Positions 11,987-60,211 of a stretch of DNA of 64,000 bases are shown here, in pieces; positions within the stretch are counted from its first letter, which is position 1, and every line of letters starts with the position of its first letter. Made by a program: the position numbers and the translations under genes. The notes under the pieces are model-generated. The model was given only the letters and a program-made list of their open reading frames with translations, ran no database searches and was not told the origin of the DNA. The DNA is from an uncultured virus (IMG/VR IMGVR_UViG_3300042397_001885) (taxonomy: Duplodnaviria; Heunggongvirae; Uroviricota; Caudoviricetes), in IMG/VR virus record IMGVR_UViG_3300042397_001885. One strand, written 5' to 3'.

Positions 11987-12624
11987 TATACCTCCTCAAT
12001 AGAAATAGATATGTCCCATAGATCGTGATTAGACCCACCTCTTTTGACAACGTTGTAACTAAAGTCTGAGAAAAATACTTCTAACACTTCTGAATACTTA
12101 TTTAAACTAGTATATTTTCCAACAGTAAAACTTTGAGGCTTGTCGTAAGATAAAAATGCATAAAATGATCCTGGATTTGTTTTGTACCATTCTAATAGCT
12201 CTGATCCTCCAGCACCGCCATCTGCTGTATATTCTATCAAGGTGTGCTCTGCTGGAAATAGTCTTGGATTTTTTGGAGTATCTGGAACCAAAGAGTCTGA
12301 TGTTTGAATTCCATTTTCATCAAACTCTGGATCTTTGCTGTAAGATCTTGAAGGAAGCATGTCATAAGAAAAAGATATCTCCATCTTATCTGCAATATGA
12401 TAAGAACGCATATGACCATTTACCATTCTTTTTTTACTTTCAATTCTATTAGCATTAAAAGAAATGTCACTTCTATTATGGTCAGAAAGTATTAAGAAGT
12501 CTTGTCCTTCAACTCCAGAAATTTGTGGAACACCATTTAAAATTCCTCCAGAGTTATTTGAAAAAATAATTGCTTGTGGTCTTTCCCACTTTTTTCTAGA
12601 ATTTAAATATGCACTACTAACCAT
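11986..12624 (-). CDS. distal tail-like protein
   Basis: Immediately after the tape measure; RMVNGHMRSYHIADK, ends WDISISIEEV. Confidence 0.7.
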   Translation of the reverse strand: MVSSAYLNSRKKWERPQAIIFSNNSGGILNGVPQISGVEGQDFLILSDHNRSDISFNANRIESKKRMVNGHMRSYHIADKMEISFSYDMLPSRSYSKDPEFDENGIQTSDSLVPDTPKNPRLFPAEHTLIEYTADGGAGGSELLEWYKTNPGSFYAFLSYDKPQSFTVGKYTSLNKYSEVLEVFFSDFSYNVVKRGGSNHDLWDISISIEEV

Positions 12625-15600
12625 TAGTATCTATTGCTCCTTAAATTTCCTCTATTTTGCTGTGAAAGCTTTGCCATAACTACATTTGCAATATCGTCTG
12701 GTGAGGCATCTGTTCCAGCAACATTAACATTTAAGTTATATACATTATTATACATTGTTTCAGTAACTCTTGCATCACTAATTCCAGTATCATATCTTCC
12801 AGAATCACTAAAGCTAAACTTAGGCTCCTGCATGTTTGGCATTTTAAAAGCACCCATATTTATTGCTTCAAGCAGTGACATTCCATATTTATCCACCATA
12901 GATCTTCTTACTACAAATTCTCCAGGGGTGAGCATTGCAGATATACTGTCAGTATTTCCAGGTCCTGCAACAAGACCTCCACTGTTATATCCAGAAAATG
13001 CTTTTGATGTAGAGGCTCTTGCTTCTTTTACTAACTCTGTAATCTCTTGCCTTCTTGCTTCTGAAAGAGCCCAATAAACATTGTCCATCTCGTCTGCTTT
13101 TACTGTTCTAGCAGTTGGATTCGAATAGCCCAACTTTCTGGCTATGTAATGCTGCTCACTTCCATTTCCATAAGAAACTTTTGAGTCTTTTATTCCAGCA
13201 TTGAATTGAGCTTTTGTATAATAGCTATAAACAGGTGGTGGTGGCGGTGGTGGCGGTGGAGGTGGTGGCGGTGGAGGTGGTGGAGGAGGCGGTGGTGGAG
13301 GAGGCGGTGGTGGTGGAGTTACTGGAGTTACAGCAGCTACAGGAGTTGGAGCAGCAATTACTGCAGCAGCTCCTCCTCCGCCACCAGCACCCAATGTTGT
13401 ATTTGCAGCAGCTCCAGGATTTCCAATGTCAGCTGCTGCAGCTGCTGCCTGAAGGGTATTATAGGCATCAATATAATTTTGAAAATCTATTAAAGCTTGA
13501 CCAGTTAACCCCTGTGCTCTTAAGGCTTCAATATTTTGTCTCATTTTTATTAACAAAACTTGCTGTTCTAACTTCATTCTTTGATCATCTAGTACTTTTT
13601 GTGCAAGAGAGTTAGCATAAAGTTGGTCTTGAATTAAAATCATGTCTTGTTCATTTTTGTAAATAGTCTCACCAAACTGAGATATTTGTTCTGTAATTTG
13701 CTTTCTTGTCATCATTACACCATTTACAGAAACTGTTAACGATTCAAGTTCTTTTTGTCTTTTTGCTTCAAGTGCTGCCCTTGCGTCCTCAATTCTAAAC
13801 TGTGCCTCTTCTTGTTGCATTGCACTTGCTGCACCTGCTGCAGCAGAAATATCTCCAGATGCAAGTGCTGAAGCTAGGTCTAATCTTGAACGATCTTTTT
13901 GAGCAATTCTATCATTTGCATTAGCAACCTTATCAAGAGCCTTTACTCTATCATCATAAGTTGTATTAATCTTTTCTTCTTCTTTTGCTAACAAATCAAG
14001 AGCATGGTTTCTTAAACTTATTTGACGTTGTATTAACTCATTTTCTCTTTCCATTCCAGAAAGGGAGTTTTGTAATGCAGAATTCTTAATATTTATTGCT
14101 GAAGATTCTGCATCTATTGCATCCATTGTTCTTTCTTGAGAAGTCTGTGTTAAATAATCAAGTGCTCTTTGAACATTTAGCTGAGAAGTTAGCTGTTTTA
14201 CATATTCCTCCCTTTGTGTAGTAGTCATTGCAAGATACTTTTCTGTATCTATCATTCCCAAAACTTCTGCCCCAGCAGCAGCAGCGATTGGAGAAATTGC
14301 ATTAAAGTAATTTTGCATTTCTTGAGTTTGTTGTTGCATGTCTGTAATTTCCATTGCAGCTGCTAGCTTAGCCTGTGCCAAAGTCTGCTTATTTAGCTCT
14401 GCAATATATGCTTTTCTTTGAGCAGTGTTCATAGCAAGGAATGCTTTTTGATCAATCATTCCTTCAATGTCTGAGCTTATTGCAACACCTAGTCCACCTA
14501 GTGCAGCAGAATATTTTTGCATATCGCTAGTTTGTTTTTTGGCATCTGCAAGTGCCATAGTTGCTGCTAGCTTAGCTTGTGCTACTGATTGTTTATTCAG
14601 CTCTGCAATGTATGCCTTTCTTTCTTCAGTAGTCATAGCAAGGAATGCTTTCTGGTCAATCATTCCTTCGATATCTGAAGTTATTACAACACCCAAAGAG
14701 TTAAGTGCTTTTGAATATTTTTTCATATCTGCTGTAGCTTTTTGAGTTTCTGCTAAAACTGTTACTGCATTTAATCTTTGTTGATACGCAATTTGCTTTT
14801 GCATTTCTTTAATCAATTTCTTTCTATTTTCAGTAGAAAGATTCATGTATACATCTTGAGGAATCATGCTAAGGGCTTCTATATTGTTAGCTGTTGCAGC
14901 ACCTTTAACTAGGTTTGTGTAATTTTTAAGAACTTTGTTATTCGTAGTAGCATCTTTTAAGAAAGTTTTTGCTTGAGCCTTTTTGCTAGGAGGCTTTGTT
15001 CCGCCAGAGCTACTACCGTTGTCATCAGTATTAACAACTGTCTGAGGAATTACTGACTGGATAGCTTTTTGTTGATCTGCTACAGCTTTTTTCCAAACCT
15101 CTAGTCTCTTGTAGTAGGCTGACATTTCTGCAGGAGCTCCTGACTGAGGAATAGTTGGTGCATTTCCAACTGACATAGTTGCAATGGTAAATGATGCTAA
15201 ATATGATTTTTGCTCACTTGCAGGAAGTGCACCAAAGGCATCTACTTCTGCCTGTGTCATGTCGTACCCAGTACTTTCAAATACAACGCTCTTTACTTTA
15301 GCTTCATCTCCACCTAGAGAATCAAACATTTCTTGAGCTTTTTTATTTGCAGCCTCTAACTCTTTAACTGGATCTTTTCCAGGTCCTTTGAGTGCGGTAT
15401 AGATTGCCTGAGCATCTGCTCCCTTTGGCATAAGTTCTGCAATTTTATCAATAGCATCTTTTTGTGTTTTATAGAATGCATCTACATCTTGTTCTTTATT
15501 ATCTCCAGAGAAATATTCCATTGCTAGAGATAGGTCATATCCTTCTGGAAGACTATTTAAAAGCTGTGCAAATTTTTCAACATTAGCAGTTGACTCTGTT

Positions 15601-18600
15601 ATCTTTGCTTGATCTTCTGCACTTACCCCTGAAATTCCACTTACTAGTTGAGAAGTAGTGACACCCATCTTATTTACATTAGGAAGTGCAGCACTAACAT
15701 TGCTTGCCATAGTATTTGCTCTTGCAGCCTGTTGTTCAGGAGTTAGGTTCACAAGATTAGATGCTGCAGATTCAGCAAACTTTCTAATTTGTTCCTTTTC
15801 TGCTTCAGCCCTAATTTCTTCTGAGGTTAAGCCATCTGCTGCTGCTGTAACTAGTTCATCTGCTATTTTTGCATAGATGTCTGTTATGTCTCCAATTTTT
15901 GCTCCAGCATTTTCTTCAGTTATTCCATCCAAAGTGCTTGCCATAATTCCAGTTACTACATCTTTTTGAGCTTGATCTAGCTTGTCCATATCTTTTTGGA
16001 ACAGCTTATTTGAAATACTATCAGTTGTTACATTAGATGCAACTGCCTGAGCAGTATCTCCCTTAAATCCAGAAAGCACTAACTGGTCTTTAATTCCTTG
16101 TGCCTGTGCATCTGCACTTGCTCCAATGTCTATAGCCTTCTTAACTCTTTCATACTCAACTTGTCTCATTTCATTAATTTGTTTTAAAGAAGATTCGAAC
16201 TGAGTATCTGTTATTAATCCTTTAGACCTTTCTTCATTTAATAAAGATTCGGCATTGTTTAATTCTTTTAATGTTTGAATAGTTGCTCCAAATGATTTGG
16301 ATGACTCTGCAACCTGTTTTTGTTGATTTTTTATTGCTAGATTGTAAACTGCTATACCAGCCACTAATCCAACTACAGCACCAGCTACAGCACCAACAGC
16401 AGTTCCAACAACTGGAACTACTGATCCTATTGCACCACCCATTGCTGCTAGCTTTGCAGTTGATGCAGCGATTGCAACTCCTGCACCTAAACCTGCAGCT
16501 AACCCAATTCCTCCATACTTTACATTGGAACTAGTTCCAGCAGTATTATTTCTTTTTGCCTCTTCAGCTTTTGCTTTTTCAAAATCTGAAACCGTTGAAG
16601 AGTCTGCAGCTGCCTGTCTTTTAGAAATTTCACTAATCATTGCTTGAGATCCACTTTGAAGCCTTCCAGATCTAATAAGAGCTACTGTTTTTGATTTTAA
16701 TAATGAATCGTCTAATGCAAAAGCTATTGCAGATCCAAAAGACTCTGCTTTTTTAGGATCCATTCCATCTGCTATTGCAAATGTTAGCATTGATGCAACT
16801 TTCTCATACCTTTCTTCAGAAGAAGCACCCTTTAAGTCTTCTACAAGCTTTTTACCCTCATCAGTATCAAAGAAAGGCATCATTTCAGCAGCACCTTGTG
16901 ACTGCTCTTCTGTAAATCTAAAGTCTTGTACTGAAGATCTTGTTGACGCAAATCCATAACCAGTTGCAGCACTAATTGTTTCCATTCTATTTGCTGCCCC
17001 ACCAAGGTTTGACCCAAATTCTGCAGCTGATTTAGCAGTATTATCCATATCCTTTTTAAACATTAAGAATCCTGCAGCAGCAGCTCCTACTGCTAGGGTT
17101 AGTCCTCCTAAAATTGGACCAAACTGTTGAAGCATTGGAAGAATAGCCATAGCACCTCCAGCAGCCATCATCATTTGCTGTTGCTTTGGATCTTCTACAA
17201 AACCTGAAGCCATCATTGGAATCATTGAAGCCATCATCATTCCTTGACCAGCTTTTTGCATTCTTTCTGCTCTAAGAGCCTTTGCTTCAGGAGTTCCCAT
17301 AGCTGCCCTTGTGTTTGCCACAGCCTGTTTTGCATCTTGCATTCTTGGAACAACATTCCATTTTCCATAATCTTTAATAGAATTTTTTAAATTATTTGCT
17401 CCATTTGCAACAGACTTACTTGTATCTTTAAAAGAAGTTAACATTGGTTTGGCTGCATCTGAAATTGCTTTTCCAGATTCTTTATATGCGTCTAATATAT
17501 ATTTTGGACCTGTTTTTAATGCTGCCTGGACTGGTGCAATTTTTTCAGCAGAACCCATTCCACTAAAGACATTGTATCCAGTGGCGGATCTTGATTGCTG
17601 GTATGATGCTGAAGGTCTAATTCCTTTTATTCTTTGAGCATTTGTCAATGAACCAAGAGGGTTAACATAGTCTCCAAGACCATACCTTCTTGTTTCTCCG
17701 TTATTAATTGCCTGTAGCAAAGGAAGATTTTTTGCAGTAGCATCTTTATTAATTACAAACTCTCCAGGAGTTAGCATTGCAGGAACTGTATCAGTATTTC
17801 CTACACCTGGAACAAGAGTTCCACTATTTGCCTTTAGCACTCCTTGGAATCTTGAAGCACTTGTATATATCTCTCCACTTAAACCTCTAATTGAAGTAAG
17901 GTCTCTAAGCATAATTGCAGAGTATGCTTCATCTGCATTTTTATATCCAGATGCTCTTGCTAACTCATCTAATTTTGATCTATCTCCAATTCTAGAAGGT
18001 AGTTTAAAGGAAGACACTCTTGCAATAGCTGACTCAACAGCATCATCATACATTTTTGTAAATTGTGCTTTAGTTAATTTTTCACGAGCAATAGAATCTC
18101 CAAGCATTTTAACAAAGTCTTTTGATGCCCCTGTTTTTTCAATAACCTGTGTAATTGCTTTTGCTGTATATGCTCCAGTATTTGTTGCTTCATTTCCAAA
18201 ACTAATTTCAGATCCAGTAGCTCTTCTAAATACACCTTTTGAATTTCTAATTAGCTTAACACCTGCAGCACCAGGATCAATTGTTGCAAGTCTTCCTCCA
18301 CGAGTTGAAATAATATTTCCAGCTGTTGCATCCATATCTCCAAGCATTGATGAGGCAGGAATTTGCTTGACAAGTTCTTTAGTAGAAAGAGTTGATCCTG
18401 ATTTCATTCCTGGAATCATTGGAGCAGTTGTTGCAAATATTTCTCCTTCAGGACCGTCCATTCTTACAATTCTTGATCCAGGGGTTGCAGTTCCTGCAAT
18501 TGCTCTTCTTGCCGCATTTCCAATTAATTCTGCCTGAGCTTCTTGAAGAGTTTGAAATGGCTTAACAAACATTTTTCTGCCATTAACCTCATAAACTCCA

Positions 18601-21600
18601 GCTAGGCTTCTAAACCTACTACTATGTCCTTCTGACTCTGCAATCTTTGTTCCAGAGAACTTTTCAAATTGGTTTTTTGCAACAACACGATTTGGCATCA
18701 TTCTGCCAAAATATTGCATACCTCCAACAGCTCCACCAGCATTAAAATCTTGAACTTCTGCATGTGCATTGTTATATGTGCGACCTGCATTATATCTTTG
18801 ATTTGAATACGATAATCTTCCAGGTATAGGTCGTGACTGTCCTGCATTTATTTCAACTCGTGTTCCATCACTTGCAGTATATATGTATGTACCACCTCTA
18901 GGAGCATTTGGAACAGGTTCAAACTTTGGATGTATGCCACCAGTATCACTAAATCTAATAGAATCCTTAATGTATGGTTCAAACCTTTTCATTGATCTTG
19001 AACCAATTTCTGTATTCATTATTCTTGCTGTAGACAACAATCTTTCTTGAAGAATAGTTGAAAGATTTGCTGCCCTTAATGAGTCAACAATAATTCTTCC
19101 GTATTCAGGATCTGAAAATTTATGAGATTCTGGAGACCTTTTAACAATTTCTATAGCCTTAGATCTTAGTGCTGAGTCAATTCTTGAATAATGAGCAGGA
19201 TCAAGGTTAGCTTCATCTAATATGTGTTTAAATGGAGAGACTGGAGTTGAGGTTCCATGAAGTTGAGGATTTAGTGCAAAAAGATCTTCCATTTCTTTTC
19301 TAGCAACGCCAAGATTAGGGTTGCTCACTCCACGCCTCAGACTATTATTAAAGTCAAACTCTTTTCCATAGCTGGTATCACCCTCAAGTGCTGGACCCTC
19401 TCTTTTATATCTTGGTGTTGGAGTGATAAGTCTTGCCTTTTCACCCATAACATTAGCTGGAGCTCCTAGTGCTACCAAGTCTGCCGTTAGTTCATCTATA
19501 ACACTCTGTGGTGCGTTACCAACGCTTTGAACATTTCGAATAGGTCCTTCCTGTACATCTTGTTGAGCTCTTTGTTGGTTGGGCGATGTTCGTCTTGCTG
19601 TCACATTTTTTGGTTTTAAAGCTCTTTGGTTTTTAATACGATCTTGTCTTGATAGCAGTGAAAGATTTCCAAATCTTTCTTCAAGACTTATCCCTTTAGC
19701 CTGAGCTTCAGGTCCAAACATTCTAAGATATCTTTCCTTAATAGCCTGATTTCTTGCTTGACTATTTCTTAAAACCATTGATCCAAGATTGTATCCAGGA
19801 ATCATTCCGCCCTTATTAAATTTATTTCCACTATTGATTGCATCAAGAAGTGCATAATTTTTTGCAGTTGCCTCTTTGTTTACAACAAACTCTCCTGGAG
19901 TAAGCATTGCTGGAACGGTGTCAGTATTTCCAACTCCTGGAACCTGTGTTTCTCCAGATACAAATATTGGTCCACCAGCATTTCTTCTAAGGGCTCTAAC
20001 TGTAACAGAACCAGTTTTACCTGCACCTGCTGCAGCTCCTGCCATACCTGCAGTTTTAAATGCTGGATTAAATGCTGCTGCCTGTGCCTGTGCTGATATA
20101 AGAGTTCTGTACTCTGCAGTAAGCTTTGCCACAGCTATTCTTGCAATATCTGTAGAAGTAGCCTGTTCTAGCATTGCTGCTTTAGCAATATGTGTAGCAG
20201 ATGACAATTGCTTTGCAGCAGTTGCTGCTTCTAGTTCTTCAATTGATAAATATTTGGTAGATTGCGTAAGTGTTCTTATTGCTGCTATTGGACCACCCTT
20301 AATAAGTGACTTTACGAAAATTGCAATTCCATGACTAATTTTTCCAAGTGTTCCAAGCAAGTTAATTAAAAGACCAAGAAACATTGTTCCAGCAGGAATT
20401 ACGACACCAACAAGGACTGCTGCTATTGCTGCAAATTTCTTTTGACCATCAGATAGCCCATTAAATTTTTCAACAATAGTTGTAAGAAAATTTACAAAAG
20501 GAATAGCAAGTTTAACAAATATCTCTCCAATTGGTTCAAGAGATAGCTTTAATCTTTCTACTGCTCCAATAAGCTGTGTTCCTAAAGCATTTTCTACAGC
20601 ACTAAGTTCTTTTTCTGCTGTAGTTTTTAATGCTGCAACATCATACTCCATTAATTGTAAAACTTGACTTGCTTGAGATCCATCTCTAACAATATTTTCA
20701 AACAAAGCTCCAAGTCTTGCATACTGATACTTTCCAAAAACTTTTTCTAATGCCTGTTGCTTTGAAAAATCATCCAAGCCTTTAAGTGCCTCACCAAAAG
20801 CAAATACTGTTCCCATCAAATCTCCACGATTTGTAGAAATTATCTTATCTAGATTAATTCCAAAACTTCCCAAAGTTTCTGTTGCTGCTTTTGTTGGATT
20901 AATTAAAGATGCAAGACCAGACTTTAGTGCGTTAGCACCCTGTTCTGCACTAACACCACCTTCTTGCATTGCTGCAAGGAATACTGACATGTCTCGTACA
21001 TCTCCACCAAGACCTTTAATAACTGGGGCAACTCTTGGAATTGCTGCAGACAAGTCTTGCAAAGAAACTACTGTTTGATTTTCAACCATATTTAAAAAGT
21101 TAATTGTATCTGCAAGGTCTTCTCCAGAAAGTCTAAAAGCAGATTGCAGGGCTATTGTAGTCTTTAAAGCTTCTTGCTGCTCCATCTGACCAAGAGTTGC
21201 TAGTCTTGTTGCTTGTCTTGTTGCATCTATTAAGTCTGCATTTCTTGCACCAGAAGCTGCTGCATTTGCAGCCATTCCAATAGTATCTTTTACTGCAATT
21301 CCATATTTTGTATATTCTTCAGCAAGTTGTCTAACTTGTGCAATATTTTGATTTACTTCTTCTGGAGTTGTAAAAGCATCTCCATAAACCTTTTTAAGAT
21401 TAACTAATTCTTTTTCAATATCCATAAAGGTTTTACCTGCGACTGTTCCTAAAACAGTTAAAGGTACGGTAAAGCCAACCATAAGCTGACGACCAGCCCA
21501 CTGAACATTTTTACCAAAGTTAATCATGTGGGTTGTTCCCTGTCTAAACATTGTATTTAGAAGGGCTTGTCTTTCTGCTGCAATTGCTGCTTTAGAGGCA

Positions 21601-22031
21601 TAGGCATCTAGAGGTCTAATTGCAAGAGCTTCACCCATACCTTGTGCAGAAGCACCAGTTGAAATAAATTGTGTTTGCAAGGTAGAAGCTCTTCTAGCTG
21701 CAAGAGACATTGTTTCTGCAAACGCTGCACTATTTCTATTAAATGCAGAACTAAAAAATTGACCTAAAGTTCCTCTTCCTCTTTTTAAAGTGTTGTCAAG
21801 ATTTGCAGCAGCGGAGTTTAACTTTACAAACTCTGAAGTAAAAACTCCAGTTGAATTTATTGCTTTTGAAAGATCTCTTGTATAGTCAGTAGCAAATTTA
21901 GCTTGGGCTAGATTTCCCTTGGAAAGGGCTGAATTAAAGGAGTTAATTTGTAGTTGGAGCTTTTTTAGCTCAGCAGCAGCAGACCCAGTGTTTATCTGGA
22001 TATCAATAATGCCTTTAGCTACTCCAGCCAT
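12624..22031 (-). CDS. tape measure protein with internal cargo domains, 3135 aa
   Basis: Follows the chaperone pair; TP901-type core (GANALKSGLASLINPT), Ala-rich helices, hydrophobic segments, three GNTD.(V/I).AMLTPGEFV motifs. Confidence 0.93.
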   Translation of the reverse strand: MAGVAKGIIDIQINTGSAAAELKKLQLQINSFNSALSKGNLAQAKFATDYTRDLSKAINSTGVFTSEFVKLNSAAANLDNTLKRGRGTLGQFFSSAFNRNSAAFAETMSLAARRASTLQTQFISTGASAQGMGEALAIRPLDAYASKAAIAAERQALLNTMFRQGTTHMINFGKNVQWAGRQLMVGFTVPLTVLGTVAGKTFMDIEKELVNLKKVYGDAFTTPEEVNQNIAQVRQLAEEYTKYGIAVKDTIGMAANAAASGARNADLIDATRQATRLATLGQMEQQEALKTTIALQSAFRLSGEDLADTINFLNMVENQTVVSLQDLSAAIPRVAPVIKGLGGDVRDMSVFLAAMQEGGVSAEQGANALKSGLASLINPTKAATETLGSFGINLDKIISTNRGDLMGTVFAFGEALKGLDDFSKQQALEKVFGKYQYARLGALFENIVRDGSQASQVLQLMEYDVAALKTTAEKELSAVENALGTQLIGAVERLKLSLEPIGEIFVKLAIPFVNFLTTIVEKFNGLSDGQKKFAAIAAVLVGVVIPAGTMFLGLLINLLGTLGKISHGIAIFVKSLIKGGPIAAIRTLTQSTKYLSIEELEAATAAKQLSSATHIAKAAMLEQATSTDIARIAVAKLTAEYRTLISAQAQAAAFNPAFKTAGMAGAAAGAGKTGSVTVRALRRNAGGPIFVSGETQVPGVGNTDTVPAMLTPGEFVVNKEATAKNYALLDAINSGNKFNKGGMIPGYNLGSMVLRNSQARNQAIKERYLRMFGPEAQAKGISLEERFGNLSLLSRQDRIKNQRALKPKNVTARRTSPNQQRAQQDVQEGPIRNVQSVGNAPQSVIDELTADLVALGAPANVMGEKARLITPTPRYKREGPALEGDTSYGKEFDFNNSLRRGVSNPNLGVARKEMEDLFALNPQLHGTSTPVSPFKHILDEANLDPAHYSRIDSALRSKAIEIVKRSPESHKFSDPEYGRIIVDSLRAANLSTILQERLLSTARIMNTEIGSRSMKRFEPYIKDSIRFSDTGGIHPKFEPVPNAPRGGTYIYTASDGTRVEINAGQSRPIPGRLSYSNQRYNAGRTYNNAHAEVQDFNAGGAVGGMQYFGRMMPNRVVAKNQFEKFSGTKIAESEGHSSRFRSLAGVYEVNGRKMFVKPFQTLQEAQAELIGNAARRAIAGTATPGSRIVRMDGPEGEIFATTAPMIPGMKSGSTLSTKELVKQIPASSMLGDMDATAGNIISTRGGRLATIDPGAAGVKLIRNSKGVFRRATGSEISFGNEATNTGAYTAKAITQVIEKTGASKDFVKMLGDSIAREKLTKAQFTKMYDDAVESAIARVSSFKLPSRIGDRSKLDELARASGYKNADEAYSAIMLRDLTSIRGLSGEIYTSASRFQGVLKANSGTLVPGVGNTDTVPAMLTPGEFVINKDATAKNLPLLQAINNGETRRYGLGDYVNPLGSLTNAQRIKGIRPSASYQQSRSATGYNVFSGMGSAEKIAPVQAALKTGPKYILDAYKESGKAISDAAKPMLTSFKDTSKSVANGANNLKNSIKDYGKWNVVPRMQDAKQAVANTRAAMGTPEAKALRAERMQKAGQGMMMASMIPMMASGFVEDPKQQQMMMAAGGAMAILPMLQQFGPILGGLTLAVGAAAAGFLMFKKDMDNTAKSAAEFGSNLGGAANRMETISAATGYGFASTRSSVQDFRFTEEQSQGAAEMMPFFDTDEGKKLVEDLKGASSEERYEKVASMLTFAIADGMDPKKAESFGSAIAFALDDSLLKSKTVALIRSGRLQSGSQAMISEISKRQAAADSSTVSDFEKAKAEEAKRNNTAGTSSNVKYGGIGLAAGLGAGVAIAASTAKLAAMGGAIGSVVPVVGTAVGAVAGAVVGLVAGIAVYNLAIKNQQKQVAESSKSFGATIQTLKELNNAESLLNEERSKGLITDTQFESSLKQINEMRQVEYERVKKAIDIGASADAQAQGIKDQLVLSGFKGDTAQAVASNVTTDSISNKLFQKDMDKLDQAQKDVVTGIMASTLDGITEENAGAKIGDITDIYAKIADELVTAAADGLTSEEIRAEAEKEQIRKFAESAASNLVNLTPEQQAARANTMASNVSAALPNVNKMGVTTSQLVSGISGVSAEDQAKITESTANVEKFAQLLNSLPEGYDLSLAMEYFSGDNKEQDVDAFYKTQKDAIDKIAELMPKGADAQAIYTALKGPGKDPVKELEAANKKAQEMFDSLGGDEAKVKSVVFESTGYDMTQAEVDAFGALPASEQKSYLASFTIATMSVGNAPTIPQSGAPAEMSAYYKRLEVWKKAVADQQKAIQSVIPQTVVNTDDNGSSSGGTKPPSKKAQAKTFLKDATTNNKVLKNYTNLVKGAATANNIEALSMIPQDVYMNLSTENRKKLIKEMQKQIAYQQRLNAVTVLAETQKATADMKKYSKALNSLGVVITSDIEGMIDQKAFLAMTTEERKAYIAELNKQSVAQAKLAATMALADAKKQTSDMQKYSAALGGLGVAISSDIEGMIDQKAFLAMNTAQRKAYIAELNKQTLAQAKLAAAMEITDMQQQTQEMQNYFNAISPIAAAAGAEVLGMIDTEKYLAMTTTQREEYVKQLTSQLNVQRALDYLTQTSQERTMDAIDAESSAINIKNSALQNSLSGMERENELIQRQISLRNHALDLLAKEEEKINTTYDDRVKALDKVANANDRIAQKDRSRLDLASALASGDISAAAGAASAMQQEEAQFRIEDARAALEAKRQKELESLTVSVNGVMMTRKQITEQISQFGETIYKNEQDMILIQDQLYANSLAQKVLDDQRMKLEQQVLLIKMRQNIEALRAQGLTGQALIDFQNYIDAYNTLQAAAAAADIGNPGAAANTTLGAGGGGGAAAVIAAPTPVAAVTPVTPPPPPPPPPPPPPPPPPPPPPPPPPPPPVYSYYTKAQFNAGIKDSKVSYGNGSEQHYIARKLGYSNPTARTVKADEMDNVYWALSEARRQEITELVKEARASTSKAFSGYNSGGLVAGPGNTDSISAMLTPGEFVVRRSMVDKYGMSLLEAINMGAFKMPNMQEPKFSFSDSGRYDTGISDARVTETMYNNVYNLNVNVAGTDASPDDIANVVMAKLSQQNRGNLRSNRY
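13233..13316 (-). repeat. 28 consecutive proline codons in the tape measure
   Basis: 84 nt of CCN codons with mixed third positions. Confidence 0.95.
14150..14950 (-). repeat. four copies of a 68-aa (204-bp) repeat in the tape measure
   Basis: Equivalent Leu codons at 14232/14436/14640 and Met codons at 14661/14865; core SDIEGMIDQKAFLAM.T..RKAYIAELNKQ. Confidence 0.85.
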
Positions 22032-22402
22032 TAATTAACCACCTCATAATCCAAGCCATTTCCAATTCCAAAGCCAGCACGTTGTGCAGCTTTGCCTTGA
22101 AGGGCAAGAATGTCTCTAGGATTCGATGTAGCACCTTTGCTAAAAGCTCTAGCCTTTATCTCTTCCCATTTATTCTTAGACGTATCTGAACTATCTAAAT
22201 CAACGCCCTGTAAAGCTGCCATGAATTTTCTACTTTCATATTCTTGACTATTTTTAGCTTCTAGTATTGCTACCAGTTCGGGCATTGATATAGAGTCCTC
22301 CAGTTCAGAATAGTTCTTCCAGAATCCCAGAAGAAATACTCTTGATTCTATCTCAGCAAGATCTAGTTCGTCCCAACTAGAGCCGCTGCCAGTGCGTTTG
22401 GG
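22031..22402 (-). CDS. tail assembly chaperone, C-terminal (-1 frameshift) part
   Basis: The frame of ORF 22031..22285 stays open upstream (WDELDLAEIESRVFLLGFWKNYSELEDSISMPEL) to a TGA just before the slippery site. Confidence 0.85.
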   Translation of the reverse strand, partial: PKRTGSGSSWDELDLAEIESRVFLLGFWKNYSELEDSISMPELVAILEAKNSQEYESRKFMAALQGVDLDSSDTSKNKWEEIKARAFSKGATSNPRDILALQGKAAQRAGFGIGNGLDYEVVN

Positions 22403-22698
22403 TCATTCAGCTTAATTCCTGCAGCCACTTCAATAACCTTGTACACTGTTGGCAAGTCAATGAGCTCTTCTAGCTGCTCTTTGGTTGCCAGTTCTGGGTT
22501 GTATTGCTTCATAGCAATTACAGCACAGTTTAATAAAAGATCCATAGACTTTACATTGTCTTCTGCAATTTTTGGATCACTAATTTTTTGAAACTCTTTC
22601 ATAAAATCTCTAAGTAAAGAGATTTTTAGGGGTTTCATAGAAATAGCAGAACCATCTAATAGTTCTACTTCTACAACTTCATATACGCTAGTTGCCAT
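22363..22698 (-). CDS. tail assembly chaperone (gpG-like)
   Basis: Between major tail and tape measure; AGGAGG RBS. Confidence 0.85.
   Translation of the reverse strand: MATSVYEVVEVELLDGSAISMKPLKISLLRDFMKEFQKISDPKIAEDNVKSMDLLLNCAVIAMKQYNPELATKEQLEELIDLPTVYKVIEVAAGIKLNDPNALAAALVGTN
22396..22402 (-). other. -1 ribosomal frameshift slippery heptamer C CCA AAC
   Basis: XXXYYYZ heptamer, correctly phased (GAC CCA AAC), at the first position where the -1 frame opens. Confidence 0.85.
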
Positions 22699-30875: not shown

Positions 30876-33800
30876 TTAAACCAAATAGGTGTCCCAAGAT
30901 ATGTCATTTAATATTACAACAGAATCAAAACTGACACTAATTACGCTATTATCGTCTCCAACTCCAGAAGAAAGACCTGCATATGTGTTAAAAATTTCTT
31001 TTCCATCTAAAGACAAAACAGTAACTTCAAGAGATTCTTCATTTAATATCTGTTGCCAATTGAAAGATGTAGACCCAGATCCAGACCAGTATTCCCAAGT
31101 TCTATTGTCAACAAGATCCCATTCGTCAAAAACAATTAAGTTTTGTTTAATAGGATTTAGTTCCATAAAGCTTGCAACATTGTCAACTTTAACTCCAGAA
31201 TATATTTCAATCTGAGCAAGAATTCCATTTAAAGGTATAGAGTTTTCCTGCAAAGCTATTGCTATATAGTTCCAGGTAAGTGGCTCAATTACTATATCAT
31301 TTACAAGCTTTCCATTTAAAAATGATTTTGCATCTAAAAACTGATCTCCAGTAACAGAATCAACTATTGAAAAGAATGCTCTTTTTCCATCTTCTTCAGG
31401 AATTAGAATTATGTCGTAAGAGTTGTTTGAGCTAAATATCTTTCCAATCTTTTTTCTTTCAGTAAAAGAGCTTGCCTCATCATACATTAAAAACATTTGA
31501 ATTCCTACCATTTCTTGATTAACCTTTAAAGTTTGGTTAACTGGAATTGACAACCCTTTTATTAAATTTTCGTCAACTTCTGGCAATACCTGTATTCCAG
31601 AGTCTCCTGCTAGATACAAATATGGAGATGATTCTGTGTCAATCACTACTGGAACATTTCTTTTGTAAACATACTGATTTTCATTTTTAACTATTGGATA
31701 AAACTTACCTGCAGTAGGAGTATTTATTGAATAAAATTGTCCTTCATCAAACGATAGACCTGCAATCCCCATATTTTTAACATTAACATTTTCTGTTTTT
31801 ATACCTTTAGAGGAAATTTCAATATGAATTGTGACATAATAATTTGAAAATCCTGCAATATTTTTTGGAACATACATAACTGTTTTATCATTAATTTTAT
31901 ACTTTGTGTTATTTGGAGAAGTAATTTTTCCTAAATCTAAAATTTTATCAATTCCAATAATCTCTGTATTAGCAAACTGTGTATATGTGGTTTTTCCTAT
32001 TTTAGAAACATCCTGCAAGGTTACAAAAACTTTTGTAGATAATGATTCTTGATACAAAGAAGACAGTTCACTATGTTTTGAAAATGTTGAAGATGGTGTA
32101 TCTATATTAAACTGTAGCATATCTAAGTCATACTTTAAATCTCCATTATTTTGAGTTATATATCTTCCAAAGTAGGAAAGGGGGATGGAATTTTCCCAGT
32201 AACCAGATACTCCTATGTCTAAAACCATTGAGGTATTGGTAGCTTTAGGAAGAAGTGTATAGGATCCAATATAGTCATAAAATTTTGAATTAAAGTTTTT
32301 GATAGCAAAACCGTAAGAGTCAAACATTTCTGACCCATCTTTATCTGTAAAGAAGTCGCTATTTATTGTTAAAGAAAATATTTTTCCTAAAAACACATCT
32401 TCATCTTTTCCTGCAAAATTTAAAGACAAGGTATCTGGTCTTGAAAAGAATGATCCAACTACAGAGTTATAAGCCTGTTCTATTTTATTAAAATCAATTC
32501 CCACTGCAAAAAAAGAATTTTGAGAAATTGTTTCTGATTTTAATACAGTTTCGTTATAAGAATATTGAACACTTGCAGAATCAATGAAAACTTCAAAAAC
32601 ATCTGAGCTAGTATTATTTGATATATATAATATAGACTGTCTACTTGTAACATCCTCTGATGTTTTTAAAACTGAATATAGCGATCTTGTTTGATAGTTT
32701 GTCTGATTTAGCTTTGAAAAATATACTGTTCCAAAAGATTCATTAAATAAGTATTCATAGCTTGGAGCCATGCAGATAAAAGGATAATTTTCATCTTGAA
32801 GTTCATAATTATCTTCATAGAAATTTATACTAGCCAGTGACTTTTGATATTCTGAACCAATTCCAGTGTTAGTAAATAAAACCTGTGGAAGACTATATTC
32901 AGGCAAAGATATTCCTTTTGAATTTGCAACTATATTATTGTAAAATCCATCTTCCCACTTTGTTCTATCGGGATACCTTATTGTAGAGCTGTAGCCAGAA
33001 AATGGGAAGTCTACATAAGAAAGATTTCCGTTTGATGATGAAACTATGTTATCTTGCTCTTGAACTCCTTGTCCAAAAACGTATCTCTTTTTTGCAACCT
33101 GCTCTGCAACAGCATATGGGAATATTGAAAAAGAGTCAATCTCGTATAAATATATTTCTGCGTCTGTGTAAAATCCTAAGAAGTCTTCATCTTTTATTGG
33201 GAATGTTTCAATATTTAAAGATTCTATTGGTATAGATATAACCTTTTCTCCATTTATCATTAAAAATATTTCACTTGGACTTTGACAAAAATGCATAAGC
33301 ATTGGTCTATACCATTTTCCAATAAAATAAGACTTTGTATAATTTCCTACAACGATAGAAATAAATTCTTTATCTATGTATATGCCATCACTGGATGTTA
33401 GTGGTCCAAATATTCTATTCTTTTTAGTTTTTTCTGGATTAATTCTTAACCAAAACTCTGTTGTCAAAGTTTTATTATTTCCTGATTGATTTAAAAATCC
33501 TTTTCCAGGAAATATAAGGGAAGGAAAGTTGTAATACTGATCTTCTGTTAAATACAAAAATTCATACGAAGCTCCTCCGTCTATAGAATACATATACTCT
33601 GTTGAAGAAGATCCTCCATCTATCAATATTTCTTCTAAAGAAGATCCGTCAAGAATTTCAGTTAGGACTATAGCATCTTTATTTATTCTTATATTTCCGC
33701 TTGACCCATAAACCATTGGAACTCCTGCAAGTTTTGCAAAGAGAGAATTGCTTATTGATGTCACATATCCATTTTCTGACTCTGTACTAAGACCGTAGGG

Positions 33801-34475
33801 GTCTAAAACTGTACACTCTATAGATTCTGGAAAGTCTATAAGACTTCTAATATTTGATGGAAGAGGTTGTGGAGATATTCCAGTGCTTACTGAATTATAA
33901 GGTTCTGACCATTGCCCAACAGATACTCCATTTATATATACAGATGATTCATCTTCTAAAGCATCTACACTTGGATAAAATCCAACTCTTATAAAGGGAG
34001 TAAAAGTATCTTCCGAAAACTTAACTGTATGAGAAATTTTTTCCCAGTTATTCACCTTTAATGACAAATATCTTTTATAAACATACTCTCCATCAACAAT
34101 AAAACCAATATCTAAATAAAGAACATCGGTTTCTCCAGGAATGTAAATATAGGAAGAAACGCAAACGCTTCCTTTTCCAAGATCTAATTCTGAATAAGAA
34201 ATAGCAGAAGAAAGCGAAACTTCCATTTCTTTTGGAGAGTCTGTAGAAAGATAAATTTTATTAACATCTAAATCATCAAAAGGATACCCTGAAAGTGTGA
34301 ACGTTGCAGATGCATTTATAGTAGCATTATCAAAGTCCCAGTTGGATTCCGTAACCTCTTTTTCTGCATCTGAAATTAAAGAAACAAAATAGTTTGGCTC
34401 ATCCATTGACCACAAAGCTACAGGATGCTCAGCATATATTCTGGAAGCATAAAGATTTGAACGTGTGTAGGACAT
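30876..34475 (-). CDS. large virion-associated protein with LamG/ConA-like segments
   Basis: HPVALWSMDE start, TTEFWLRIN...WYRPM.MH...LMINGE pattern. Confidence 0.6.
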   Translation of the reverse strand: MSYTRSNLYASRIYAEHPVALWSMDEPNYFVSLISDAEKEVTESNWDFDNATINASATFTLSGYPFDDLDVNKIYLSTDSPKEMEVSLSSAISYSELDLGKGSVCVSSYIYIPGETDVLYLDIGFIVDGEYVYKRYLSLKVNNWEKISHTVKFSEDTFTPFIRVGFYPSVDALEDESSVYINGVSVGQWSEPYNSVSTGISPQPLPSNIRSLIDFPESIECTVLDPYGLSTESENGYVTSISNSLFAKLAGVPMVYGSSGNIRINKDAIVLTEILDGSSLEEILIDGGSSSTEYMYSIDGGASYEFLYLTEDQYYNFPSLIFPGKGFLNQSGNNKTLTTEFWLRINPEKTKKNRIFGPLTSSDGIYIDKEFISIVVGNYTKSYFIGKWYRPMLMHFCQSPSEIFLMINGEKVISIPIESLNIETFPIKDEDFLGFYTDAEIYLYEIDSFSIFPYAVAEQVAKKRYVFGQGVQEQDNIVSSSNGNLSYVDFPFSGYSSTIRYPDRTKWEDGFYNNIVANSKGISLPEYSLPQVLFTNTGIGSEYQKSLASINFYEDNYELQDENYPFICMAPSYEYLFNESFGTVYFSKLNQTNYQTRSLYSVLKTSEDVTSRQSILYISNNTSSDVFEVFIDSASVQYSYNETVLKSETISQNSFFAVGIDFNKIEQAYNSVVGSFFSRPDTLSLNFAGKDEDVFLGKIFSLTINSDFFTDKDGSEMFDSYGFAIKNFNSKFYDYIGSYTLLPKATNTSMVLDIGVSGYWENSIPLSYFGRYITQNNGDLKYDLDMLQFNIDTPSSTFSKHSELSSLYQESLSTKVFVTLQDVSKIGKTTYTQFANTEIIGIDKILDLGKITSPNNTKYKINDKTVMYVPKNIAGFSNYYVTIHIEISSKGIKTENVNVKNMGIAGLSFDEGQFYSINTPTAGKFYPIVKNENQYVYKRNVPVVIDTESSPYLYLAGDSGIQVLPEVDENLIKGLSIPVNQTLKVNQEMVGIQMFLMYDEASSFTERKKIGKIFSSNNSYDIILIPEEDGKRAFFSIVDSVTGDQFLDAKSFLNGKLVNDIVIEPLTWNYIAIALQENSIPLNGILAQIEIYSGVKVDNVASFMELNPIKQNLIVFDEWDLVDNRTWEYWSGSGSTSFNWQQILNEESLEVTVLSLDGKEIFNTYAGLSSGVGDDNSVISVSFDSVVILNDISWDTYLV

Positions 34476-34506: not shown

Positions 34507-36447
34507 CTATCTTGTAATATCTACAATTTCACAAGCTCCAGCAACACAGGATAGTTCTTGGCTTCCAGTTGTTCCATCAGTTGTTTCATACAAAGAAAGC
34601 ATGTCCCAGCGAATTGAGTCTGGCATCTTACTTAGCCAGGAATCGTACTCTTCTTTAGATATTTCCTGATAAGGAGCTTGCTTGTAAGAGTGTTCAACTG
34701 ATGGAAGAAATGAAACTCCGCCAATTGAGTCAAAGTTGTCAAATACCCAAGCACCAACACGCATCCACTCATCTTCTTCAACATTGATAGTTACACTTGG
34801 ATTATGTTCTGTCCAGTGAGTTCTATATGTCTTCCACATTTCAAGATGATCAATTGCTGTTAAATCTTTTGTAAGTACTGCATTTTTTGGAGCCTTAATT
34901 GGGAAGTAGAATACAGTTGTAACTTCTGGCTTCATAACATCTGGCTCAAAAGGAATTCCAGAATCTTTTAAAAACTGAGTTAAAGGATCTTTGTTATCTG
35001 CTCTAACACTTCTTACATAGTATTCTGAATACCATGGGTGAATACCAGAAGACACTCCTGTAAGCTGTGAAACAGTTCCTGAAGGCTTTACACAGGTAAT
35101 TGATACTGAAGGATTAATGTTTAAAGACTTAGCCTCTTTTTCATTTACTGAAACAGATAGATCTCTCATTTCATCAAGAAGTGACTCAAGAGCTTTTCCA
35201 TTTGTAGCAGTAATTTTATTTCCATAGATACCAGTTAAGGATACTCCAAGAAGTCTTTCTTCTTCACAGTTATCTCTCCAAGTTTTTCTAATATACTTAA
35301 AATTAGTCAAAGTTGATTGCCATGTTCCAAGAATTGTTGCAAGTCTAACCTTTTCAAGCAAGGTTTCTTTTGTATCAGTTGCATCAATTACAACTTCTGT
35401 TAAATTGCAAAATTCATTTGGACGAAGAAGAATTTCTCCACAGGGATTTGTTCCACCAACTAGGCTTGAATCTCTACGACCAAACTTATCAATATGTTTA
35501 CGAACAGAATCAATGTTGTAAATTCCACGCTCACCAGACTTTGACTCGTATAGGTTTCTCCATTCACGAAGGAACTGTGCAGTGTTTGGCTTAGAATTAT
35601 AAACAGCAGAGTTATTTGCTAACGCTCTCTGACCATTACCTTCCCACCATTGACCACTCTTAGCTTTTGCCATTTCAAAATCATCTAGGTTAGATAATGA
35701 AATTAAAGCACTTCTGCGAACTCCACCAACTACAACAACTTCTCCAATCTTACACATTAAATCATGTGCCTCAATTGACTTCATTCTTCTTCCTGAAGCA
35801 ACCTTAAATGTTTCAATTGTAAAATTAAAAAGATCTACAAGTGGATCTGGACCAGATGCTCTTCCACCAAATACCTTTAGTCTTGCCCCAGCAGGACGAA
35901 CCTTTGAAACATCCCAGTTTGGAATTTGACCCTGATAGAGAAGTGCAATCAATTCCTTGTAAGCCTTTGCCCATCCTAGTTTTGAGTCGTCAACAACAAT
36001 TGTAGTATCTGTTTGAAAAAATGATTCTGAAATAACTGGGAGTTGATTAATATATTTTTGCTCAACACTAAATCCAACACCAGTTCCATTCATTAAAATA
36101 TACATAGCCTCATCAAAGGCTCTAGGGCTGTCTACGGCAATAAAAGAGCAATTGTATGCTGCGATATGGTCTCTTTCTAAAGCAGGTCCAGCGGTCATCA
36201 GTGCCCTCATAGATGGCATTATGTGGTGGTTCAGGATTGCTTCTCTAACTTCAGTAAACACTTTTGCATTTGGACTGTATCCATGATTAAGTACGAGATG
36301 ATCTCTCATGAAGTTACAATATCTGTCAACGGTTTCCTCCCAAGTTTCTCTACGATTTTCGTTTTCAATCCAGCGAGCATACCTTGAGATATGAATAAAA
36401 TTGCGGTATGGATCTGTTATAGATCCGTTGGAGTCAATAAATGACAT
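34507..36447 (-). CDS. nrdJ: class II (adenosylcobalamin-dependent) ribonucleotide reductase
   Basis: RRETWEETVDR, AAYNCSF, GTGVGFS, GGVRRSA, TNPCGEI, TCVKPSGT, C-terminal CVAGACE; no beta-subunit gene alongside; start MSFIDS at 36447. Confidence 0.9.
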   Translation of the reverse strand: MSFIDSNGSITDPYRNFIHISRYARWIENENRRETWEETVDRYCNFMRDHLVLNHGYSPNAKVFTEVREAILNHHIMPSMRALMTAGPALERDHIAAYNCSFIAVDSPRAFDEAMYILMNGTGVGFSVEQKYINQLPVISESFFQTDTTIVVDDSKLGWAKAYKELIALLYQGQIPNWDVSKVRPAGARLKVFGGRASGPDPLVDLFNFTIETFKVASGRRMKSIEAHDLMCKIGEVVVVGGVRRSALISLSNLDDFEMAKAKSGQWWEGNGQRALANNSAVYNSKPNTAQFLREWRNLYESKSGERGIYNIDSVRKHIDKFGRRDSSLVGGTNPCGEILLRPNEFCNLTEVVIDATDTKETLLEKVRLATILGTWQSTLTNFKYIRKTWRDNCEEERLLGVSLTGIYGNKITATNGKALESLLDEMRDLSVSVNEKEAKSLNINPSVSITCVKPSGTVSQLTGVSSGIHPWYSEYYVRSVRADNKDPLTQFLKDSGIPFEPDVMKPEVTTVFYFPIKAPKNAVLTKDLTAIDHLEMWKTYRTHWTEHNPSVTINVEEDEWMRVGAWVFDNFDSIGGVSFLPSVEHSYKQAPYQEISKEEYDSWLSKMPDSIRWDMLSLYETTDGTTGSQELSCVAGACEIVDITR

Positions 36448-36514
36448 TGTGTAACACGTCCTTCTGATAAAATGGGAATAGTTATATTCTACACTAATAT
36501 TCAAGGAGAATCAA

Positions 36515-52800: not shown

Positions 52801-53084
52801 ACTGCTGCAAAAGGCTCTACGTCTATTCTTCCACTAGGCTCTGCTCCTGAAGCAGAAACCAAAGTTCCCTTTAATATTGTTGATCCAGTATTATTTCTAA
52901 CTAAATAAACAGAACTAGTTGACTTAGAATCAACGTCACCTGCACCAAGGACTGACCAAGCTCCTGCTTGGTAAATCTTTGCAACAGATGCTGAAGAATT
53001 AAAATATAGCTCGCCTTCAGAGCCAGTAGCTGGATCTGTATCCAACACTACTAAATTTAATCCTGTTAAAAATTTCTTTGCCAT
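49845..53084 (-). CDS. long tail fibre / appendage protein
   Basis: YLTQSSASST repeats, PTSPSEGDLWFDS, LPSQSGNNGKYLSTDG, C-terminal FPIGTQI...LRAQWSSAVLVK...W.L.GDL. Confidence 0.8.
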   Translation of the reverse strand: MAKKFLTGLNLVVLDTDPATGSEGELYFNSSASVAKIYQAGAWSVLGAGDVDSKSTSSVYLVRNNTGSTILKGTLVSASGAEPSGRIDVEPFAAVGGINSELTVMGMATANISNGVNGEVISFGTLTGLDTRGNVASSIAVGDETWAAGDILFAHPTVAGKLTKVRPQHDLAVAFITVRHASTGQIAVRIVPGNNHLEWMHDVLISGSVQNNELLAYNSASGLWLNQTASESGIATTEDLYDYLTTGDATLLYQPISVRLFNLTGLENVEGFLRTDGGLGWGVDTATYLTTSSASSTYLTQVDAQEEYLTQIDALNTFLTFESLASASAYQPLDGNLTAIVELSSGSPGFLKKNIFNEWVIDSNTYLTTFDAGEIYQPVGDYATIDGIETLTNKTISSPIIHGNLTFNGDLEYHTFSASANSLFIDVFDDLYIHTNNGSIILQPDEFVKIYDELVATQEWVEFQDYLTVSSASALYSQIDHNHTIDSLSNVEISSLSDGDSIVWNSASSKWINQIIEGGGGSSVTISSSAPTSPSEGDLWFDSDTLELFIFDSLYWIEVSGGGAVDLSSYLTIASASSTYLTQSSASLTYLSSESDTLETVTGRGATSSNAITISNTTEATDSTTGALIVSGGVGVAKDLWVDGNLHVAGTTTTENTRTVATHDNLIYLNAALDSEITGASGDGTYVTYIADNLYTVGMDIRVTGVDPSSFNISTGDLKTVYSATASSFVVESTTTDTYISGGTSHAKEEANPDLGFAGGYYDAGYAHAGLFRDASDGIFKFFKGYTPEPDEAVNIDTGHISFSLADVYANDVTLNNGSFSGSVSVGALISGEWNASTIGYQYGGTGLSTLGSAGQVLKINSLEDGLEWGTIDALPSQSGNNGKYLSTDGSTASWETLDLSLYLTQSSASSTYLEQSIAFSTYLTQSSASSTYLTQSNASTTYATITSPSLTTPNIGAATGTSLNTTGNVISHIDILNPTFVTNSYTLTIGDDGDLLMLNNSTTAGNLLIPTDASLNFPIGTQINIVQAGTGLITVAAVTPATTTVNATPGRKLRAQWSSAVLVKTAANTWLLMGDLTV

Positions 53085-59997: not shown

Positions 59998-60211
59998 AAT
60001 AAAACTATTATAACATATATTCTTTACTATATCTTTACCATTGAAAAATTCCGCAAAAAATAAAAACGCAAAAAATCGGCGGAAATAGTACACATTTCAT
60101 CACTTTATAACTACGTTATTCTATGATAGATAAAAAGTTTTTTTAAACATTTACTATTTATTAAAATAATACGGGGTAAACATTATATGCAGATAGTCCC
60201 TAATGTGAAGA

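Follow-up and report, generated by a model that had tools for sequence, protein, structure and literature searches.

A predicted kinase-fold domain in an optional cassette of a phage tape measure protein

Enzymes known inside phage tape measure proteins (TMPs) are mostly cell-wall hydrolases; could such a protein also carry a kinase? The question is raised by a TMP gene (12624..22031, minus strand) in a stretch of 64,000 nucleotides from the uncultured Caudoviricetes virus record IMGVR_UViG_3300042397_001885 of IMG/VR. This whole stretch is called the window below, and positions are counted from its first letter. The gene is an open reading frame (ORF) of 3,135 residues, and its segment at 17836-18731, i.e., TMP residues ~1101-1399, had been read in a first-pass annotation as a HipA/PI3K-like atypical kinase fold embedded in the tape measure. 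Here we report that this segment is almost certainly a kinase-fold domain (17832..18734, minus strand; TMP residues 1100-1400, with a hidden Markov model envelope of 1100-1394) and that it is the conserved part of an optional cassette, TMP residues ~740-1400.

The embedding in a tape measure was borne out by Pfam, by the PHROG TMP families and by the tail-module context. The TMP core domain (PhageMin_Tail, PF10145; 20733..21329, minus strand) was matched on residues 235-433 with an E value of 1.3e-27 and 97.4 bits, against a cut-off of 33.2, and ten PHROG TMP families cover the first ~680 residues (best E 5.4e-96). The gene sits in a siphovirus-type tail module, and its product combines great length with hydrophobic segments.

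Predicted catalytic residues and their conservation

The kinase motifs quoted in the first-pass annotation are all present in the stated order between TMP residues 1135 and 1254 (all coordinates here are on the minus strand; domain numbering, used for the alignments and models, plus 1099 gives TMP numbering). Read in the translation, these begin with GHSSRF (residues 1135-1140), GVYEVNGRKMFVKP (residues 1145-1158, containing Lys1157), AQAELIG (residues 1165-1171, containing Glu1168) and TPGSRIV (residues 1183-1189), followed by LGDMDATAGNII (residues 1230-1241, window 18309-18344; containing Asp1232, Asp1234, and Asn1239) and LATIDPG (residues 1248-1254, window 18270-18290; containing Asp1252). 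Lys1157, within VFVKP (18561..18563), is the candidate beta3-type lysine, Glu1168 (18528..18530) the candidate helix-C-type glutamate, D1232-M-D1234-A-T-A-G-N1239 (18315..18338) a catalytic-loop-like segment, and D1252-P-G1254 (18270..18278) the putative equivalent of DFG. The spans assigned earlier to the last two motifs, 18315-18338 and 18270-18281, coincide with their cores, D1232 to N1239 and IDPG, respectively. Kinase catalytic loops follow the rule D-x4-N, and the Asp-to-Asn spacing of 5 in the TMP domain equals this D-x4-N. The Arg and His of DRHxxN are indeed replaced, as had been noted, with the loop reading D-A-T-A-G-N here and mostly D-L-x-x-G-N in relatives.

Relatives of the domain were collected by an exhaustive HMMER search of 1.84 billion representatives at a threshold of E <= 0.001, which returned 12 proteins, i.e., three close ones, seven distant ones (24-36% identity), all of them long TMP-like proteins, and two repeat-driven ones that were discarded. 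A profile search contributed 17 longer proteins and two short ones; the latter, stand-alone-like versions of 308-318 residues, both come from contigs of only 1.6-2.8 kb and are therefore probably fragments. A scan of IMG/VR with a peptide pattern gave 331 matches, 233 of which encode a relative, so at least 233 uncultured viral contigs carry the kinase-like domain. When the best 80 of these 233 loci were analyzed, the domain was found inside a giant ORF in all 80 (2,637-4,062 residues when complete); the TMP core was present in 76 of these ORFs, and the other four are cut at the 5' end. By comparison, a scan of prokaryotes, with one genome for each of 185,579 species, gave two loci only, both on contigs of metagenome-assembled genomes titled Actinomycetota.

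Conservation was read from alignments of these sets. Of 27 domain-bearing proteins, 21 make up alignment A2, with P0004 (partial), P0016, P0019, P0022, P0027, and P0029 omitted as near-duplicates or truncated; alignment A3 comprises 34 representatives of less than 80% mutual identity, drawn from 57 distinct sequences. K58, E69, D133, D135, N140, D153, and G155 are invariant in the HMMER-derived alignments of 10 and 21 TMP relatives, the members of which, two close ones excepted, are 23-29% identical to the window copy, and the invariant columns of A2 further include G36, G46, Y48, and Q124. Among the 80 loci, the 57 distinct domain sequences have a median identity of 26% to the window copy, and every one keeps G1135, G1145, K1157, E1168, Q1223, D1232, D1234, N1239, D1252, and G1254. 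The G, S, and G of the glycine loop are likewise invariant (21/21 and 57/57). Since D1232 and D1234 are part of the peptide pattern that gathered the IMG/VR loci, their invariance in the set of 57 is partly by construction, while K1157, E1168, N1239, and D1252 lie outside the pattern; for the two aspartates, the HMMER-derived alignments are the fair test, and both are invariant there too. A chance match to the motifs was ruled out by this invariance together with the predicted fold described below.

The domain also stands out from its immediate surroundings. Four close TMP relatives were compared, and identity over the kinase block is 82-91% for three of them and 60-81% for the fourth (P0003); over the preceding 300 residues it is only 16-20% in three of the four, and over the next 200 residues it is 25-59%. 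The kinase-like domain is thus a conserved island, far better kept than its flanks.

Might the fold be real and the usual phosphotransfer be missing, with the domain serving as a pseudokinase, a nucleotide-binding scaffold, an enzyme of other chemistry (AMPylation or glutamylation), or a folding plug or anchor of the ejected TMP? SelO and SidJ are kinase folds that perform other chemistry, the catalytic loop here is without His/Arg, and no sequence match to an active kinase family was obtained. Pseudokinases, however, usually lose at least one residue of the K/E/D/N/D set, and invariance of this set in 57 of 57 sequences at such low identity is the pattern of an active ATP/Mg site. We consider this alternative improbable. 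Judged from the sequence and its conservation, TMP residues ~1100-1400 are instead predicted to be a catalytically active atypical kinase, which we regard as probable.

Predicted fold and family placement

Structure prediction, which had been suggested as a check, returned a kinase-like fold in both of the models built. The window copy, modeled by AlphaFold2 with alignment A2, reached a predicted local distance difference test (pLDDT) of 69.4 and a predicted template modeling score (pTM) of 0.73; the relative L057:9971-10834, which is 25% identical to the window copy and was modeled by AlphaFold with the 34-sequence alignment, reached a pLDDT of 90.6 and a pTM of 0.88. The model of the window copy has Lys58 in strand 53-60, Glu69 in helix 63-80, the D-x-D-x4-N loop (132-140) between helix 124-131 and strand 141-143, and Asp153 after strand 149-151, and the L057 model shows the same order of secondary-structure elements. 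As modeled, the elements that bear K, E, D, N, and D are those expected of a kinase and follow each other in the canonical order. A helical C-lobe is present in both models (helices at ~179-300 in the window copy and ~177-287 in the L057 relative).

The models were compared by VIA-align with 48,161 representative chains of the PDB, with the best 50 rows kept per model and a stated background of Z 7-8. Only kinase-fold entries occur among the 50 matches listed for each model. For the window copy, these include CtkA at Z 11.2 (root mean square deviation [rmsd] of 5.7 over 214 aligned residues), PI4KIIalpha at Z 10.6 and 10.3, CotH at Z 10.1, MavQ at Z 9.9, Fam20 at Z 8.9, and HipA at Z 8.1-8.2; for the L057 relative, CotH at Z 12.1 (rmsd of 3.8 Å, 214 aligned), PI4KIIalpha and MavQ both at Z 10.1, CtkA at Z 9.8, HipT at Z 8.8, and HipA at Z 8.7. 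PI4KIIIbeta (Z 8.3-8.8) and the lipopolysaccharide kinase WaaP (Z 6.6-8.3) were matched by both models. The kinase-like fold proposed for the segment was thus recovered, whereas HipA as its nearest neighbor was not, as CotH, CtkA, PI4KIIalpha, and MavQ, at Z 9.8-12.1, rank above HipA at 8.1-8.7.

Foldseek against the PDB likewise listed kinase entries throughout its 50 matches. In BFVD, the neighbors of the L057 model (E 3e-5 to 9e-4) include large phage proteins with annotations such as PI3/4-kinase-domain, ADP-ribosyltransferase, portal, or head morphogenesis, so similar kinase folds may ride in head-borne cargo too. An ORF of 1,199 residues (30876-34475, minus strand), which is flanked by the portal gene and a ribonucleotide reductase gene (34507-36504) and has no Pfam or PHROG match, could be a head-borne cargo protein; a second large ORF without a Pfam match, of 1,079 residues, lies at 49845-53084. 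The nearest clusters in the ESM Atlas are unnamed, and the named ones, LepB_N, PI3_PI4_kinase (16% of members), and HipA_2 at 0.89, serve as leads only.

The neighbors do not point to a single substrate class: the closest folds include CotH and CtkA, which are protein kinases, and PI4KII and MavQ, which are lipid kinases, so on the models the substrate could be a protein or a lipid. A delivered active enzyme might act on a non-protein substrate, such as a lipid, a sugar or envelope precursor, or a nucleotide-like small molecule, and work at the membrane in building the DNA channel or rewiring a metabolite pool, perhaps in concert with the HAD phosphatase and nucleotidyltransferase modules of some relatives. 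Several of the best neighbors fit this possibility (PI4KIIalpha at 10.1-10.6, MavQ at 9.9-10.1, and PI4KIIIbeta, with WaaP at the low end), as do the LepB_N and PI3_PI4_kinase leads of the ESM Atlas and, in 2 of the 21 relatives, a faint match of the catalytic loop to the NCBIfam RisK1 PI3-kinase model (E 0.13). The top matches of the two models, CotH and CtkA, are nevertheless protein kinases, fold similarity does not set the substrate, and, to our knowledge, most bacteria lack phosphoinositides. We therefore hold a non-protein substrate to be unlikely, and a protein remains the preferred target of the kinase.

Membership in the HipA_C or PI3_PI4_kinase families, the other part of the original proposal, did not survive the sequence tests, as profile searches and an hhalign comparison with HipA all failed. 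HipA_C (PF07804) gave no Pfam match at E up to 1 in the domain or the 21 relatives; G001, the nearest virus record, was likewise negative at E up to 10, with four control genomes matched in the same test, three of them over the cut-off. PF00454 (PI3_PI4_kinase) found no match in the domain, the 21 relatives, or G001, and CotH (PF08757) none in the Pfam scans at E up to 1. HipA or PI3K/PI4K membership was rejected on these grounds, and the loop also lacks the Arg/His. The kinase family of the polyvalent proteins was rejected as well: compared with its verbal description (PMC5512222), the TMP domain keeps a helical C-lobe and has no invariant or near-invariant His in the catalytic-loop motif, and it therefore does not fit that definition.

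Several hallmarks of the protein-kinase-like superfamily were found in the domain, i.e., a two-lobed kinase fold (as modeled), a conserved beta3 Lys, a helix-C Glu, a D-x4-N loop, and a DxG metal loop. Because the fold is that of a kinase and the HipA, PI3K/PI4K, and CotH profile tests failed, the domain is, on the predicted structures, a new family within this known superfamily, near CotH, CtkA, and PI4KII by fold. No description of a kinase inside a TMP was found in the literature searched, which lay mostly outside subscription journals.

An optional cassette between fence peptides

The cassette is bounded by copies of a ~40-residue peptide, here called the fence peptide, with the pattern …GNTD[TS][VI][PS]AMLTPGEFV…L[LE]AIN…; its core can also be written GNTDTVPAMLTPGEFV…LLxAIN. 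The TMP holds three copies, all encoded on the minus strand. Copy 1 (…VPGVGNTDTVPAMLTPGEFVVNK…LLDAINSGN; 19812..19964, residues 690-740) and copy 2 (17682..17834, residues 1400-1450) are 124-nt direct repeats (19827-19950 and 17697-17820) that are 77% identical and 2,130 nt apart, and between them they enclose TMP residues ~740-1400, i.e., a variable stretch and the kinase. Copy 3 lies near the C-terminus (12837..12989, residues 3015-3065) and is covered by phrog_35029, a family of "unknown function" that spans TMP residues 2993-3065.

The variable part of the cassette (18747..19754, minus strand; residues ~760-1095) belongs to no recognized family. It has no alignment to P0003, and its identity is as low as 16-20% in three of four relatives with flanking parts of 82-98% identity; TMP residues 740-1100 gave no phmmer match among the 28 collected proteins. 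This hypervariable stretch upstream of the kinase might be the target-recognition part of the cassette.

The optional nature of the cassette was evident from 80 TMPs with an N-terminal core 57-100% identical to that of the window (the best 80 of 143 loci), 58 of which are complete. The kinase is present in five of the 58 complete TMPs, in all of which the core is at least 92% identical to that of the window TMP, and absent from the other 53, many of which are ~900-1,100 residues shorter. In five kinase-less relatives, homology to the window TMP runs through fence peptide 1 and stops just after it, and their own fence copies enclose other sequence. More widely, related TMPs hold two or three fence copies around differing sequence, and for this reason the fence peptide looks like a joint for cassette exchange. 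The absence of the cassette from 53 of 58 complete relatives also makes a structural need for it unlikely, which counts against the plug, anchor, or scaffold roles considered above.

Other enzyme modules accompany the kinase in some relatives. A HAD class IIIB acid-phosphatase domain (PF03767, E 1e-10 to 4e-17) was detected by Pfam in 4 of 12 full-length kinase-bearing relatives and by jackhmmer in 12 of the 80 kinase-bearing loci; it directly follows the kinase in P0009, L014, and L016 and also occurs in L018, L060, and others. At the N-terminus of P0006, a borderline match (PF01467, E 3.7e-4) points to a cytidylyltransferase-like domain. The HAD modules, including those adjoining the kinase, would suit action on a non-protein substrate; in Pfam scans, however, the window TMP has no HAD or nucleotidyltransferase module of its own. 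The position of the domain between hydrophobic segments would also suit membrane work. The first of these segments (20346..20441, residues 531-562) recurs at ~530-585 in almost every kinase-bearing TMP with a complete 5' end and in each case precedes the kinase domain; the second (17058..17120, residues 1638-1658), where detected in such TMPs, follows that domain. A third, glycine-zipper-like segment (16329..16451, residues 1861-1901) also draws weak DUF1269 and Pam17 matches in Pfam; all three were located by a Kyte-Doolittle scan and lie on the minus strand.

Tentatively, these data can be read to mean that the TMPs of this phage group have a "cargo bay," fenced by the ~40-residue peptide and loaded with swappable enzymes: the kinase in the window TMP and, among its relatives, HAD phosphatase, nucleotidyltransferase-like, and unknown modules. 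The kinase would then enter the host ahead of or with the DNA and phosphorylate a defense or housekeeping target before phage gene expression, and the fence would be a recombination joint and perhaps a processing joint. We think this broader picture possible, though somewhat less likely than not to hold in full; if it is true, tail-borne effector delivery would be comparable to that of secretion-system effectors.

The remainder of the locus is that of a tail module. All genes of the TMP region are coded on the minus strand, with major-head, protease, and portal genes, an Ig-domain protein, and two small ORFs upstream of the TMP gene and minor tail proteins downstream. The two small ORFs (22031-22285, 84 residues, and 22363-22698, 111 residues, both on the minus strand) occupy the position of a tail assembly chaperone pair; the former ends at the TMP start, and PHROG lists both as "unknown function." The TMP core is 82-98% identical among close relatives. 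GC content is ~0.32-0.46 over the TMP region, with its peak at a proline-repeat stretch and no compositional break at the cassette; this stretch, near the C-terminal end, comprises 28 consecutive prolines (residues 2906-2933, window 13233-13316), encoded by repeats that read GGT/GGC/GGA on the plus strand, and is preceded by an Ala/Gly-rich stretch. Elsewhere in the window, a 778-residue ORF (57757-60093, minus strand) has an Mtd_N domain (E 1.6e-12), the N-terminal domain of the major tropism determinant; the variable receptor-binding protein of phages with diversity-generating retroelements belongs to this family. The window has 93% of sampled 31-letter words in common with a 60-kb viral record estimated to be 56% complete, and the genome is therefore probably ~100 kb.

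Proposed mechanism and comparison with known systems

How might such a domain work? In the mechanism that we propose, Lys1157 and Glu1168 would position ATP, Asp1234 would act as the base, and Asn1239 and Asp1252 would hold Mg2+. The cassette would ride in the tail lumen within the TMP and be expelled together with it as the tail opens. It would then refold next to the DNA conduit, either at the cytoplasmic membrane or inside it. With ATP from the host, it would there phosphorylate a host target, most probably a protein, ahead of all phage gene expression. Taken as a whole, this mechanism is plausible, and we put its chances at about even.

The delivery step draws on an analogy with two published cases. 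Gp96 of Thermus phage P23-45 is a TMP of 5,002 residues with a fused virion RNA polymerase that transcribes the pre-early genes (PMC10770324), and kinase domains in the polyvalent proteins, large multidomain proteins of phages and plasmids, have been proposed to be co-injected with the DNA and, in the manner of the T7 kinase, to modify proteins of the host (Iyer et al. 2017, PMC5512222). Both cases support the suggestion that the TMP cassette may be delivered.

Several observations weigh against an active, delivered kinase. On the side of catalysis, the catalytic loop is without the His/Arg of HRD and DRH, and residues 154-195 of the window copy model, the activation-segment region, fall below a pLDDT of 50. 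The structural matches are modest: VIA-align Z scores of 10-12 exceed the background of 7-8, though not by much; Foldseek matches are weak (best for the window copy LepB, E 1.2e-4; TM-scores of 0.2-0.4 across both models), and for the L057 relative Foldseek gave no PDB match at E <= 0.001, the best being CtkA at E 3.1e-3. The sequence libraries were silent, with Pfam finding only PF10145 and noise on the whole TMP, the domain, and 21 relatives, NCBIfam and PHROGs nothing significant on the 21 relatives, phmmer and profile searches of PDB sequences no kinase (best E 0.26-0.39, unrelated proteins), hhalign a probability of 0.1% for the family profile against E. coli HipA, and megablast and tblastn zero matches to the TMP region among 50,697 deposited phage genomes. 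On the side of delivery, a globular domain of 300 residues must travel unfolded or extended in the tail lumen. CotH and Fam20 are kinases that act beyond the cytosol, and the HAD domains in some relatives are of class-B acid-phosphatase type, a family usually located in the periplasm; the compartment in which the domain acts could therefore differ from the cytosol.

A further alternative concerns the time of action rather than the chemistry. The kinase could act late, in the producing cell, before or during tail assembly, on phage or host proteins or on the TMP itself; cleavage at the fence peptides would then remove it, or the virion would contain it in an inactive state. In favor of this, ATP is present in the cytoplasm, where the TMP is synthesized, the fence peptides could be processing sites, and gpH of phage lambda is trimmed in assembly. 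No peptidase domain was found in the TMP by Pfam, however, and fusion inside a structural protein of 3,135 residues would bring no gain to a late-acting enzyme. The same fenced position holds other cassettes in relatives, which fits cargo better than an assembly factor, and the TMP-fused enzyme of P23-45 is present in virions and acts early. Among the alternatives raised here, we give this one the least credence and keep to the proposal that the domain is carried into the host.

A TMP-borne kinase-fold module that is strictly conserved and unrecognized by the libraries suggests that long-tailed phages can carry signaling or modifying enzymes in the tail. If active and delivered, it would found a new family of phage effectors and, with its minimal D-x4-N loop, add a branch to the kinase-like superfamily, and the fence peptide with its swappable cassettes could account for those TMPs that greatly exceed their relatives in length.

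Among known systems, the nearest in delivery is P23-45. Like the proposed cassette, its gp96 joins a giant TMP to an enzyme that acts in the cytoplasm, and this enzyme is found in virions and acts first in infection (PMC10770324); it is an N-terminal RNA polymerase, whereas the kinase here is an internal, fenced cassette. A TMP-fused, cytoplasm-acting enzyme thus has one proven precedent, of another enzyme class. The polyvalent-protein kinases are nearest in kind of enzyme and proposed use. They are described as lacking the whole C-terminal subdomain and as having a conserved His...Asp pair and an insert (PMC5512222), and the term "tape measure" is absent from the main text of that article.

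By fold, CotH of the Bacillus spore coat (PDB 5jda, PF08757) is the best match of the high-confidence family model (Z 12.1), with 7-12% identity in the structural alignment. Its kinase-like fold is two-lobed and its C-lobe helical, as in the predicted TMP domain, although CotH is a free bacterial protein and the TMP domain a module of a phage tail protein. PI4KIIalpha (4hnd, 4pla) and the Legionella proteins MavQ (7m7a) and LepB (4jw1) were also compared, with fold Z scores of 9.8-10.6. The G-x-x-D-x4-N catalytic loop and the DxG motif are features that we take to be common to PI3K/PI4K-type kinases and the TMP domain, and the Arg/His of DRHxxN in those kinases is absent from the latter. The HipA/HipT toxin kinases (PF07804) match the kinase-like fold at Z 7.6-8.8 and rank below CotH, CtkA, and PI4KII. 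CtkA, the secreted Ser/Thr kinase of Helicobacter pylori (PDB 3akj/3akk/3akl), is the best VIA-align match of the window copy itself, at 9-14% identity and with no sequence-level relation to the TMP domain found in PDB sequence searches; it is a small atypical kinase that a bacterium sends into another cell.

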